Origin: a virus
Virus record (IMG/VR): IMGVR_UViG_3300042564_004498
Location: 32,001-96,000 of that record
DNA: 64,000 nt
Reading direction: 5' to 3' (one strand)
Shown: positions 13,103 through 41,112 of the stretch, one piece after another
Layout: each line of letters starts with the position of its first letter
How positions within the stretch are numbered: the stretch's first letter is position 1
Translations under genes and position numbers: made by a program
Notes under the pieces: generated by a model
Database searches by the model: none
Seen by the model: only the letters and a program-made list of their open reading frames with translations
Told to the model about the DNA's origin: nothing

Positions 13103-13696
13103 TTAAAATCCTAAAATTTCGTGTCGTTTAACCGTATCAACAATATCTAAATAGAAATCTTCAAGGTCTCTTTCTCCTGATTCAATTTGATTAATAATTT
13201 CTTGTCTTTTATACCCTGTATTTTTATCAATGAAGTCAATCATTTCATCGTCAGTAATACCTTCAGGTTTTATTGGCTCAGGTATACACTCATGGTCTCT
13301 TTCAACAACACCAATGTCATCAACATATAATCCCGTTTCACCAACCATTTCTTCAAATTTAGGTATCATAATATCTTCATACCACTCTTCAATCACATGT
13401 AGCACAAAAGATTCTTTAACGGTAAACAAAGATTGTATTGTTTTAATAAAGTTTTTAGAAACAATTAAGTGTCCCCCTTCAAAATTTTCATCTTCAAAAT
13501 AAAATATTGCTGTAATCGCCTCTACCCCATCAACACACCAATCCTCCCGAAGATTACCATAATTACGAGATTTTTGTGTGATTTTTCTCTGACCTTCTTC
13601 AATATATTGATTTAGGTATTTTGTAATTGCGTTTTGTAACACGGGACTACTTTTTACAAATCTTTTATATTGTTCTTCAGTTATAATGTATTTCAT
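13103..13696 (-). CDS. Tagged WFE-family protein
   Basis: MKYIITEEQY; AITKYLN...VIEEWYE; TATTTAT-N5-ATG. Confidence 0.75.
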   Translation of the reverse strand: MKYIITEEQYKRFVKSSPVLQNAITKYLNQYIEEGQRKITQKSRNYGNLREDWCVDGVEAITAIFYFEDENFEGGHLIVSKNFIKTIQSLFTVKESFVLHVIEEWYEDIMIPKFEEMVGETGLYVDDIGVVERDHECIPEPIKPEGITDDEMIDFIDKNTGYKRQEIINQIESGERDLEDFYLDIVDTVKRHEILGF

Positions 13697-13719
13697 GTTA
13701 AATAAATAGTTTTGAAATT

Positions 13720-13752
13720 AAAAACCCCCAACATAGTTGAGGGTTTCTTTTT
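13720..13752. terminator. Intrinsic terminator
   Basis: AAACCCCCAAC-ATA-GTTGAGGGTTT with flanking runs. Confidence 0.7.
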
Positions 13753-13760
13753 TCATTATG

Positions 13761-14318
13761 TTAATTTTCTTCAATTTTTCGTTCATCCATCACTTCACGA
13801 TAACCCTCATATAACGAATCTCTAAGTTGATATAAGTTATCATAAATTTCGTCATGATAATCATCATCGTTCATCATCTCTTCAAAATCAATCCCCTCTT
13901 CATAATCTTCAATATCGTCGTAGTCTACGGCGTATACAAATGCACCAATAGGGGCATACCCTTCATCTTCATATGTTCCATAAACAACGGTGTCTCCACC
14001 AAGTACTTCAACAAGTTTTTGTAAATACTCTGTCGGAACACTCCAAGCTGACTCAATTACTAAATCAACATCTGATGAATACTCGTCTATTTCAGATTCA
14101 ATGGTAATCCATTTGGAACCAACATTCTCGGTCATCCATTCTCTATCCATAAAATTATCAGGTTCACTAAACTCAGTCCCGTATAATTTATTGATATTAT
14201 TTACAATATCCACATATAAAGTGTCATCACTTTTACTTACAAGAAGTTCTTTTAATTTAATAAAAGTTTCTTCGTTAAGATTCTCAACCTTAACATAAGT
14301 GGTCATGGTATTTGCCAT
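13761..14318 (-). CDS. Acidic protein with YubB/DUF1281-like ferredoxin-fold motif
   Basis: WMTENVGSKW...IESAWSVP...GTYEDEG. Confidence 0.55.
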   Translation of the reverse strand: MANTMTTYVKVENLNEETFIKLKELLVSKSDDTLYVDIVNNINKLYGTEFSEPDNFMDREWMTENVGSKWITIESEIDEYSSDVDLVIESAWSVPTEYLQKLVEVLGGDTVVYGTYEDEGYAPIGAFVYAVDYDDIEDYEEGIDFEEMMNDDDYHDEIYDNLYQLRDSLYEGYREVMDERKIEEN

Positions 14319-14488
14319 TAATTCTCTAAAATTGATTTGCCCAAAATTAACGGAGAACCTGTTTGACTCTTCACAACTGTGAAATGAGAATCATACTCCT
14401 TGATGAATAAGGTGTCATCTTTACCAAATAATTGTCTGTAATTGTTTTTTGCGTAGTCTTCTACTTGTTTTGAAACTTCTGGTGTCAT
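14318..14488 (-). CDS. Hypothetical 56-aa protein
   Basis: MTPEVSKQVEDYAK...; TTTG-N19-TATATTTG promoter upstream; TAATG coupling to the next gene. Confidence 0.65.
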   Translation of the reverse strand: MTPEVSKQVEDYAKNNYRQLFGKDDTLFIKEYDSHFTVVKSQTGSPLILGKSILEN

Positions 14489-14557
14489 ATTTTTAATTAT
14501 TAAATTATACTGTCACAAATATAGAATAAATTTGTGACAAAACAAATTAATTTTTAA

Positions 14558-14920
14558 TTAAAAAGTTCCAACATCATTTACTTGAAGACCCGTATGTCCT
14601 TCAAACCATTCTTTTACCATTGGTTTCCAAGAATCTTCACCAAAATAAGCATCAAATGACCCATAAATCCCTTTTGGTAATACCAAGAATGGACAATCCA
14701 TACTTGTATTGATATCATGGTTATTACAACTTACCCACCACATATGGTCGTAGTCGTCAAATTCAGGCATCCCTACCAAAGAAAAAAAATACTCAGGCTC
14801 ATTATCATCATATGGTGATTTAAATCCATCATATGGAATTAATTTATCATTGATAAATTCTAAAATGGCGTTGTTACGCTTCCAATTATTTAATTGTTGT
14901 TCGGTTATAATATATTCCAT
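14558..14920 (-). CDS. Tagged WFE-family protein
   Basis: MEYIITEQQL...WKPMVKEWFEGHTGLQV; TATTTAT-N5-ATG. Confidence 0.8.
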   Translation of the reverse strand: MEYIITEQQLNNWKRNNAILEFINDKLIPYDGFKSPYDDNEPEYFFSLVGMPEFDDYDHMWWVSCNNHDINTSMDCPFLVLPKGIYGSFDAYFGEDSWKPMVKEWFEGHTGLQVNDVGTF

Positions 14921-14954
14921 CTCTAATAAATACTCTAACCTTTTAGTTTGGGTA

Positions 14955-38999: not shown

Positions 39000-39370
39000 A
39001 ATACGTAATACCTGAAAACAGGATGAAAAATCTTGTTATAAATTATTTGGATAGTATTGATTGGAGGATTTTAGAATCAACCGATGAATCATATCCTCTT
39101 GAGGTATATGAACATACTACGGATAAAGGTCCAACATTTATAGTAAATTGTTTTAAATATAAGTTTGGAGAAACCTGTAATTTACTAATTAGTTCACTTT
39201 TTCACAAAAAGTTAATAAGTCTGTTTGGTAAAGAGACTGTTAGTGGCGGTGAAGATGGTGAACCAAATGTTTTAATTATGGATTGGTTTAACGAATACTT
39301 TAAAACTAATGTTCACGATTATCGATATGTAGATAGCGATAACTACGCAATAAATAATGATGAATATTAG
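38996..39370 (+). CDS. Tagged WFE-family protein
   Basis: MKYVIPENRM...LIMDWFNEYF. Confidence 0.75.
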   Translation: MKYVIPENRMKNLVINYLDSIDWRILESTDESYPLEVYEHTTDKGPTFIVNCFKYKFGETCNLLISSLFHKKLISLFGKETVSGGEDGEPNVLIMDWFNEYFKTNVHDYRYVDSDNYAINNDEY

Positions 39371-39371
39371 T

Positions 39372-39683
39372 ATGAAATATATTATAACAGAAAGTAGATT
39401 GAATGGTATCGCCAATACATGGTTGGATGATAGATATGGCGATTTACGAAAGCGTAAATTCCAAGGTTACCCAAATGATGAGTTTTTATCAACAAATGAG
39501 GGAATGTTCTTCATGAATTATCATAAAAACACTAAAATCATTGAGGTTAAACATAAAATCTCCGATGAACTTGAGGATATGTTTGGTTTTGACCAACAAA
39601 TGTCTCGTGAAATACTGATACCTTGGGTAGAAAATAAGTATGGTTACAAAATTAAACGAATGGTATTTCATACTGATGTGTAA
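39372..39683 (+). CDS. Tagged WFE-family protein
   Basis: MKYIITESRL...LIPWVENKYGYKI. Confidence 0.8.
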   Translation: MKYIITESRLNGIANTWLDDRYGDLRKRKFQGYPNDEFLSTNEGMFFMNYHKNTKIIEVKHKISDELEDMFGFDQQMSREILIPWVENKYGYKIKRMVFHTDV

Positions 39684-39686
39684 ATT

Positions 39687-40079
39687 ATGAAATACATTAT
39701 AACAGAAAGTAGATTGGAGAAAGCAATCATAGAATATTTGGATAAAGAATTTATTCCTGATTACGGATGGTATGAAAATGGCCGGAAAGCTGGCACTTAC
39801 CAAGATGATGTTGATAAATGGGGCGACCTTGTTTTTTTCATAGATGATGTTGATTCTTACATTTATTTTGGCTGTAATGCAAACAATGGTCCAGAAGATG
39901 AATTCTTCGCGGATTACGGTCATTTACATAATTATGAATGTCCTTTATTACTAGTATATCCTGCAGTTAGTCAACAATTGAGTAACTATTTTGGCGATAT
40001 GTGGAAACCCATATTTAAAAAATGGTTTGAAGAAAACACAGGATTAACTGTAAACCAAATAACTGACGATTACATTTAA
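39687..40079 (+). CDS. Tagged WFE-family protein
   Basis: MKYIITESRL...WKPIFKKWFEENTGLTV. Confidence 0.8.
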   Translation: MKYIITESRLEKAIIEYLDKEFIPDYGWYENGRKAGTYQDDVDKWGDLVFFIDDVDSYIYFGCNANNGPEDEFFADYGHLHNYECPLLLVYPAVSQQLSNYFGDMWKPIFKKWFEENTGLTVNQITDDYI

Positions 40080-40080
40080 A

Positions 40081-40716
40081 ATGAAATATATTATAACCGA
40101 AAATAGAATTAATAATTTAATTGAGAGATTTATTCTTGAGAGATACCCTATGGTTAAAAGGGTTACATTCTCAACAATGGCCAAAGGTTATACTTGGGGT
40201 TATAACAATGATAAAGTCACATCTGAAGAGAATCCAATTCATAAAAATGTAATTACTGTTGAACTTATTAGTGGTAAATTAACACATAGTCCAAGTTATA
40301 CCTTAAAAAAAATTAAAAATAATATCAATCCTATGTTTGGTCTTGATATTGGTAAACAAGATTCAGATTGGGGAATTGATTATAAAAATGTTCTTGATGA
40401 GTCAATAACATTGAAACAAATTATAAAAGAGAACAAACTAAATGATTTTATGACCCAATATTTGGATAGTTGGTTGTCAACAAAACACTCATATGATTTT
40501 GACCAATTCATTATAATTGAAGATACAATTGAAACTCATGGTGGAAGCTCTGGTATTATTATGGAACATGATAATGAAGATGGTAGATTATGGTTTGATA
40601 CAGATTTCAGAAAGAACCTTATAGATTTATTTAATAAAAGTGCAGAAGAAATTAATCACTTTATTAAAGAATGGTTTGAACATAAATTTGGTGTTGAAGT
40701 AAAATATGTTGACTAA
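40081..40716 (+). CDS. Tagged two-module protein (second module WFE-family)
   Basis: MKYIITENRI...LDE...IIKENKL...IKEWFEHKFGVEV. Confidence 0.8.
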   Translation: MKYIITENRINNLIERFILERYPMVKRVTFSTMAKGYTWGYNNDKVTSEENPIHKNVITVELISGKLTHSPSYTLKKIKNNINPMFGLDIGKQDSDWGIDYKNVLDESITLKQIIKENKLNDFMTQYLDSWLSTKHSYDFDQFIIIEDTIETHGGSSGIIMEHDNEDGRLWFDTDFRKNLIDLFNKSAEEINHFIKEWFEHKFGVEVKYVD

Positions 40717-41112
40717 ATGAAAGTATTAATTAAAGAAAATAAATTATTCAATCCAATATATCAATATATTGATGATACCTACGATTTATCAACAATTGAT
40801 TATTTTCATCCAACCACTTGGAATGATGATGAACATGATGACAGGGAAAATCCATACATACGAGAGTATTTTTATAAGGATTATATTGGGGATTACGATG
40901 AAAATGGAATTGCTTTCATCTATATTGAAAAAGAATACTATAACGATAGTCCTTCCGACAGTAGTTGGAAAAGTAATGCCCCTACATTAATTGTTGGTGG
41001 TCACGAATATCAACTATTTAGTAGTATGTTTGGTAGTTATTGGAAAGAACCAATGAGAAAATGGTTTGAAGACAAATTTGGATTACCTGTTAAAACAATA
41101 ACGATAGATTAA
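40717..41112 (+). CDS. Tagged WFE-family protein
   Basis: MKVLIKENKL...WKEPMRKWFEDKFGLPV. Confidence 0.8.
   Translation: MKVLIKENKLFNPIYQYIDDTYDLSTIDYFHPTTWNDDEHDDRENPYIREYFYKDYIGDYDENGIAFIYIEKEYYNDSPSDSSWKSNAPTLIVGGHEYQLFSSMFGSYWKEPMRKWFEDKFGLPVKTITID

Follow-up and report, generated by a model that had tools for sequence, protein, structure and literature searches.

Why would a virus encode one small domain many times over in two forms, some copies beginning with a conserved peptide and others lacking it, and place the two forms behind different kinds of promoter? The question is raised by a 64,000-nt stretch of DNA (here, the window) that comprises bases 32001 to 96000 of a 145,525-bp IMG/VR virus record (IMGVR_UViG_3300042564_004498) and carries, between positions 13103 and 41112, repeated copies of a ~95-residue domain. 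About two thirds of the copies are tagged, starting with the seven-residue leader M-K-Y-I-I-T-E, and the presence of the leader tracks promoter class. Analogy with phage T4 suggests that the leader probably acts as a capsid-targeting sequence (CTS) on injected cargo, and that the leaderless paralogues would be made in the cell.

A domain family in tagged and untagged forms

Fourteen open reading frames (ORFs) that a sequence-only reading of this DNA had placed in one domain family are all present with the starts it gave them, and their homology is borne out by hidden Markov model (HMM) and profile-profile comparison. BLASTP splits these ORFs into three groups; when two BLAST-defined groups were each used to seed an iterated HMM, both searches ended with the same 18 ORFs of the 145-kb contig, 16 in the window and 2 outside it. 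With the N-terminal leader cut off, leave-one-out HMMs recover 16 of the 18 at E<1e-3, the weak members being the copies starting at 37543 (E=0.064) and 37837 (E=0.0025). Comparison of a tagged set (n=90, leader removed and cross-clade members excluded) with an untagged clade (n=61) by hhalign gave 98.75% probability and E=1.5e-16 over 96 columns; this supersedes a small earlier comparison of tagged with NGVK-type groups (10 versus 4 sequences), in which the match was moderate (54% probability). The match between these profiles establishes a single ~95-residue domain family that is homologous across both regimes. The C-terminal F...W(F/V)E...V motif that had been described is real (in the tagged set F95 never varies, and conservation of W106 and V115 is at least 90%), and four copies or part-copies had been missed (37837-38115, 21147-21431, the N-half of 40081, and the marginal 41115-41534).

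Fourteen contig ORFs, 13 of them in the window, begin with M[KER]Y[IV][IL]xE, and every match to this pattern falls at an ORF start. The leader is the best-conserved part of the protein among 68 diverged outside representatives (M1 in 68/68, K2 in 62/68, Y3 in 51/68, I4 in 58/68, I5 in 67/68, T/S6 in 61/68, and E7 in 67/68). It lies outside the predicted fold, in that residues 1 to 6 are modeled as coil and the mean predicted local distance difference test score (pLDDT) is 75 over the first ten residues and at least 94 in the blocks up to residue 100. Internal (second or third) domains of tandem proteins lack it in 17 of 18 cases, and two unrelated proteins on this contig carry it (18923-20041 and 38121-38999). 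Searching IMG/VR with a back-translated leader pattern retrieved at least 119 stretches from other phages, many of the matches being on contigs of 290 to 320 kb; at 119 such loci, 80 of the 174 tagged ORFs are not family members and often have a longer leader, MKYIITESQYKxLxE. Leader codons vary synonymously, which implies that selection acts on the protein. Sequence and model together indicate that the leader is modular, separable from the fold and common to unrelated proteins. A full-text literature search returned no paper with the leader string.

Promoter classes

The heptamer TATTTAT precedes 47 of the 236 contig genes, with a sharp peak where the motif ends 4 to 5 nt before the ATG, and is 10 times denser in noncoding than in coding DNA. 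It is frequently found behind a stem-loop terminator; terminator-like hairpins are themselves enriched (26 versus 8.2 expected) and often followed by TATTTAT, and GGGG...CCCC-type stem-loops stand directly 5' of many of the boxes. It is also found before a gene, past the window end at 97503-100040 (counted from the window start), whose product matches a virion structural family. G002, a 321-kb relative with terminal repeats, has TATTTAT as its most enriched upstream 7-mer (87/413 genes, 20-fold), preceding among others the protease, scaffold-like, and portal genes. A second motif, mostly exact TATCTTTG(T/C)A, precedes about 14 contig genes and matches TAnnTTTG, which in flavobacteria is the sigma-A -7 box (PMC9723704). 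Both motifs commonly end 4 to 6 nt before the start codon (e.g., at 30002-31050 and 42350-42400 in the window), suggesting leaderless or nearly leaderless mRNAs for many genes. An E. coli-type sigma-70 consensus was dropped as a promoter model, since a scan showed no enrichment.

The promoter class of each copy was taken as that of the nearest upstream noncoding motif on the same strand. All 12 tagged copies of this genome are behind TATTTAT and six of the seven untagged copies behind TAnnTTTG; counted by transcription unit, TATTTAT is found with 6/6 tagged and 1/6 untagged (Fisher p=0.015). At the 119 loci of other phages, which are related to one another and were chosen for carrying leaders, TATTTAT lies within 40 nt of 55/124 tagged and 0/21 untagged copies, and TAnnTTTG within that distance of 9/124 and 8/21, respectively (p=1.8e-5 and 5.5e-4). 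Leader presence thus tracks promoter class, both here and in other phages, and the lack of correlation that the sequence-only reading had named as its refutation is not seen.

TATTTAT is 4 to 5 nt before the ATG of 13696, 14920, 20583, and 24353 (and also of 37837); the tagged genes at 38996-41115 have no TATTTAT of their own and form a tightly packed block behind 37837; a scan for terminator-like sites on the plus strand within 37837-41534 found none. As had been described, TATCTTTG is directly before the untagged 27229 and 37543, and the NGVK-tailed copies too, which had been missed in this respect, are in units headed by TAnnTTTG (18889-18896, 22792-22799, and 23836-23843). The copies, the two tagged proteins outside the family, and the boxes that head untagged units are as follows.

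13103-13696, minus strand: tagged copy (MKYIITE), 197 residues, domain plus a ~70-residue C-terminal extension; TATTTAT at 13702-13708
14558-14920, minus strand: tagged copy (MEYIITE), 120 residues; TATTTAT at 14926-14932
16880-18157, minus strand: untagged copy, 425 residues, N-terminal domain at residues 1-89; last gene of the unit starting at 18875
18889-18896, minus strand: TATCTTTG, host sigma-A -7-type box, heading the unit from 18875 to 16880
18923-20041, minus strand: tagged protein outside the family (MKYVLTESQYKKLNE), 372 residues; TATTTAT 5 nt before the ATG
20278-20583, minus strand: tagged copy (MEYIIKE), 101 residues; TATTTAT at 20588-20594
20714-21157, minus strand: untagged copy, 147 residues, tail with one NGVK unit
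21147-21431, minus strand: untagged copy, 94 residues; leave-one-out E=3.3e-4
22792-22799, minus strand: TATATTTG box, heading the unit from 22745 to 20714 that contains copies 21431 and 21157
22800-23195, minus strand: untagged copy, 131 residues; nearest upstream promoter motif TATCTTTG at 23836-23843
24033-24353, minus strand: tagged copy (MEYIISE), 106 residues; TATTTAT at 24358-24364; outside protein P0005 starts at the same Met
27229-27546, plus strand: untagged copy, 105 residues; TATCTTTG at 27216-27223
37543-37806, plus strand: untagged copy, 87 residues, the weakest member; TATCTTTG at 37530-37537
37837-38115, plus strand: tagged copy (MNKYIITE), 92 residues, first gene of the 37837-41534 block; TATTTAT at 37825-37831
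38121-38999, plus strand: tagged protein outside the family (MRYIITESQYQKLQE), 292 residues; no Pfam match
38996-39370, plus strand: tagged copy (MKYVIPE), 124 residues
39372-39683, plus strand: tagged copy, 103 residues, the protein modeled
39687-40079, plus strand: tagged copy, 130 residues
40081-40716, plus strand: tagged tandem of two domains, 211 residues; N-half partial (independent E=2e-6), C-half full (independent E=2e-28)
40717-41112, plus strand: tagged copy (MKVLIKE), 131 residues
41115-41534, plus strand: tagged protein (MKYIIKESQYDRLLE), 139 residues, marginal family member (E=0.004)
Genome positions 21013-21504 and 21830-22195: two further copies, upstream of the window

The tail of the 425-residue untagged copy (window 16880-17770, minus strand) consists of twelve ~22-residue repeats ending in NGVK(E)T, which match no known family, and single NGVK units are present in the tails of the 21157 and 23195 copies. 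A weak hairpin lies between the 23195 copy and the TATCTTTG upstream of it, and a degenerate internal leader, LKQIIKE, stands before the C-half of 40081. Two neighboring tagged copies (39372-39401 and 39687-39716) are identical at 29 of their first 30 coding bases, and the proteins diverge beyond them.

A proposed link to T4-type head assembly

Internal head proteins of T4 enter the head by means of a capsid-targeting sequence, and the T4 Alt protein is cut at ITE-6 and LTE-619 (PMC5694885). The gp21 protease of T4 cuts after (I/L)-x-E; targeting of IPIII needs no more than the first 10 residues, and its processing is governed by residues 8 and 10 (PMC9026906). In MKYIITE, Ile5 and Glu7 occupy P3 and P1 of the gp21 rule and are the two most conserved leader residues beside M1. 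Peptidase_S77 (gp21) scores above the Pfam cutoff in 9/9 large leader-bearing viral records, all nine chosen for carrying the leader. In G002, Gp23, Portal_T4, and a T4-type terminase adjoin the protease, and in the capsid protein I-N-E↓A is found 11 residues N-terminal to the conserved core, which aligns to mature T4 gp23. The fit of I5 and E7 to the gp21 rule, the T4 precedents, and the protease in relatives are the grounds on which we take the leader to be a likely capsid-targeting propeptide cleaved by a gp21-type enzyme.

Evolution of the family

A FastTree phylogeny of 186 domains was built from an alignment stripped of its leader columns. Leader state needs to change 13 times on this tree, compared with a shuffled mean of 54. 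One large untagged clade holds the 21157-type, the 18157/23195-type (an all-untagged group of 23), and the 21504-type copies, and within it are the tagged members P0001/P0067 and P0008. Some "untagged" rows inside tagged clades have degenerate leaders that have lost the Glu (MKYTITND and MKYIVTNK). The 27229 and 37543 copies are placed among tagged clades on long, unreliable branches, and it is plausible that they derive by leader loss. Strong clustering of leader state with few exceptions suggests that regime switching occurs, but rarely. The proposal that regimes switch by exchange of a 5' cassette was put too strongly: real switches are found (P0001/P0067, P0008, and P0130), but they are few.

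The proposed rapid diversification is supported by comparison with G002, which shows quicker turnover in the family than in the remainder of the genome. Other genes have a G002 match in 56% of cases, with a median identity of 52%, whereas family members match at 22 to 54%, often sharing the same best match, and 7 of 19 have no match. Copy number is 18 to 19 on this half-genome contig and about 10 in the complete G002, and these sequence comparisons fit a fast turnover of the family.

Fold and database standing

A profile of 18 domains searched against 1.84 billion representative proteins matches 1,549 clusters at E<=1e-3, 216 of them at E<=1e-10. The outside clusters are all uncharacterized and metagenomic or viral; those that have a name are called "hypothetical," Pfam domains are absent from all of them, and the ESM Atlas clusters closest to the family are 100% viral. 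The family itself has no Pfam or PHROG match above threshold. An AlphaFold model of 39372-39680 (73-sequence alignment; pLDDT 93.6, predicted template modeling score 0.84) has a predicted order of coil at residues 1-6, helix α1 at 7-22, four β-strands within 26-60, α2 at 61-71, α3 at 75-90, and β5 at 96-100. Foldseek against the PDB gave no credible match with either this model or a shallow one (pLDDT 75), the best E value being 0.07, and the best Z score of VIA-align against 48,161 chains was 4.4, under the noise level. Matches in BFVD (template modeling score 0.67 to 0.79) are restricted to uncharacterized paralogues from uncultured phages.

Tagged copies are mostly acidic, with a median isoelectric point (pI) of 4.7 versus 5.9 for the proteome, and a role as basic DNA-condensing proteins was rejected on charge. 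Because of this acidity and the quick turnover, we would guess first at a module that binds proteins, with host factors or defenses as its targets.

The phage and its host

The source contig has a G+C content of ~31% and is ~48% complete (CheckV). Megablast of the region against 50,697 GenBank phage records gave no DNA-level match, and two family members searched against the same records with tblastn gave none either; the family was not found in any cultured phage of that set. Its relatives G001 and G002 share 47 to 49% identity with it in a structural protein, and the nearest isolates by capsid protein are Microcystis phage Mel-JY01 and Flavobacterium phage immuto strains, at ~43% identity. 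The source is a fragment of an uncultured jumbo phage, and complete relatives of it have a T4-type head module. The TAnnTTTG promoters point to a probable host in the Bacteroidota.

Interpretation and alternatives

We favor, as the probable explanation, a T4-style capsid-targeting leader on injected cargo together with leaderless paralogues made in the cell. The leader would bring its protein inside the prohead as this assembles, and a gp21-type prohead protease there would cut the protein after Glu7 (I-T-E↓S); packaged alongside the DNA, the mature domain would be injected into the next host cell. Tagged genes would be read from the phage's own TATTTAT promoter, the same as stands before head genes. 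Leaderless copies, several of which bear variable C-terminal tails (the NGVK repeats), would be made in the cell, probably early since most are behind host sigma-A-type TAnnTTTG promoters. Virion delivery, as the sequence-only reading had it, thus gains indirect backing from the I-T-E leader, the gp21-type protease in 9/9 relatives, and TATTTAT before head genes, and is inferred on that basis.

Several points weigh against this explanation. Packaging and cleavage are deduced from sequence and analogy, and promoter classes and timing are assigned from motifs. One untagged copy (genome 21013-21504) is in a TATTTAT unit, and the unit of 18157 carries both motifs, TATTTAT at 18904-18910 being 8 nt upstream of TATCTTTG at 18889-18896, so that two promoters are possible. 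In some multidomain proteins that lack the leader at the N terminus, I-T-E or I-S-E directly precedes internal domains, and IITE could thus be in part a structural helix cap. The co-occurrence of protease and leader covers leader-bearing records only, and neither the S77 protease nor head genes were found in the 145 kb of the ~48% complete source contig, so the link to head assembly runs through relatives.

An alternative is that tagged copies are packaged as structural or organizing parts of the head interior rather than as host effectors, much as the inner-body or ejection proteins of phiKZ and SPN3US. Giant phages do pack families of paralogous, protease-processed internal proteins (PMC5694885), and there are many tagged paralogues here and a genome of ~300 kb in the relatives; yet the acidic copies are a poor fit for DNA-condensing proteins, copy number and sequence vary between relatives to a degree unusual for structural parts, and the untagged paralogues behind host-type promoters suggest cytoplasmic action too, and we regard this alternative as unlikely. 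Less probable still is that MKYIITE is a shared N-terminal structural or regulatory element (an oligomerization strand, a degron, or a translation-start context for short-leader mRNAs) and no targeting or cleavage signal. The first codons could matter for initiation on nearly leaderless mRNAs, given that TATTTAT ends 4 to 5 nt before the ATG, and I-T-E or I-S-E is kept in linkers before some internal domains. However, the operon-internal genes 39372, 39687, and 40081 also keep the leader, its amino acids are conserved while synonymous sites vary, it is predicted as coil outside the fold, and it is carried by unrelated proteins and absent from internal domains; moreover, conservation in it is highest at exactly the two positions, P3 and P1, that the gp21 rule specifies (PMC9026906).

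It would be conceivable, for short proteins that diverge to ~20% identity in AT-rich DNA and include two weak members in the leave-one-out test (37543 and 37837), that the ORF similarity or the link between leader and promoter is a product of chance or annotation. This was tested and not supported, and we consider it highly improbable in view of the profile-profile E of 1.5e-16, the 216 outside clusters at E<=1e-10, the confident structure model, and the recurrence of the correlation in other phages.

The closest known system to the favored reading of capsid-targeted cargo is the CTS/gp21 route of T4, by which the internal proteins IPI, IPII, and IPIII and Alt are loaded and processed (gp21, Peptidase_S77). 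The two are alike in having a short N-terminal leader that ends in (I/L)-x-E and is borne by unrelated, fast-changing small proteins, in presumed expression with head genes (here by motif only), and in a gp21-type protease with a Gp23/Gp20 head module (here in relatives). They differ in the leader itself, T4 having MKTYQEFIAE or the six-residue Alt leader in place of MKYIITE, and in that one expanded domain family dominates here, with leaderless host-promoter paralogues in the same genome; the hosts here are probably Bacteroidota, and the present system is known from its DNA alone. The inner-body and ejection paralogues of phiKZ, 201phi2-1, and SPN3US are likewise head-internal families of giant phages cut after Glu by a gp21-related protease, but those proteases prefer S/A/G-x-E or A-x-E, the propeptides are long, and the proteins have no sequence or fold relation to this domain. 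PeSL cassettes, which drive modular shuffling in T4-type phages (PMC2839356), are similar in that small nonessential genes are flanked by a stem-loop terminator and a conserved promoter, short repeats that could drive shuffling. However, PeSLs carry early sigma-70-like promoters, whereas the repeated unit here is terminator, TATTTAT, and leader codons, and leader gain or loss is rare on the tree.

If the leader works as proposed, the capsid-targeting principle of T4 extends to a distant, uncultured clade of ~300-kb phages, dozens of candidate injected proteins per genome could be recognized from sequence, those first to encounter the host being marked by their initial seven residues, and the leader could serve as a tool for loading proteins into such phages. 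A large new domain family (>1,500 clusters) without a known fold match would be split into packaged and cell-made forms. More tentatively, and with considerable doubt, uncultured jumbo phages related to T4 may have a cargo system, undescribed so far, by which one scaffold is deployed against the host in two waves, the first injected premade and the second leaderless from host-type promoters. The injected version would then act before any phage gene is read and the leaderless version immediately after, and Bacteroidota phages would have in MKYIITE a packaging tag that is natural and portable.

Neighboring genes and other N-terminal patterns

The tagged protein at 18923-20041 (minus strand), which has no Pfam match, contains HEIKH, which fits the HExxH motif of zinc metallopeptidases, and is a candidate for an enzyme carried in the capsid. 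An ORF at 18160-18596 (minus strand) ends in ...DKFFELFKKK and abuts the start codon of the 18157-type copy (16880-18157); the same junction is present in three other phages (L116, L123, and L027), a conserved gene pair. Between 24450 and 27150 the window is ORF poor and the GC skew flattens, and divergent host-type boxes stand at the right edge of this region (27142-27149, minus strand, and 27216-27223, plus strand).

Other N-terminal patterns recur on the contig. MRELI[KR][KR][IV][IL][KR]E begins three otherwise different proteins (window 35244-35618, genome 27178-27591, and genome 11665-12633, all minus strand), each with TATTTAT 12 to 14 nt before the ATG, and in the outside protein P0130 a leader of this type (MKQLIRKILKEE), ending in L-x-E, is fused to an untagged-type family domain. 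A third pattern, MxK(I/V)(I/H)xLTE(S/G)(D)L, is at window 29485-30006 and 11998-12858 and at genome 16255-17250 (all minus strand), and in G002 this LTE type begins two genes adjoining the major capsid gene (L138:272-742:+ and L138:2702-3283:-). Two further minus-strand proteins of the window have leader-like starts: MKRIISESGL at 52371-53783 (470 residues, with a weak DHH-domain match) and MSEIIITEHQL at 54158-55222 (354 residues, behind TATTTAT).

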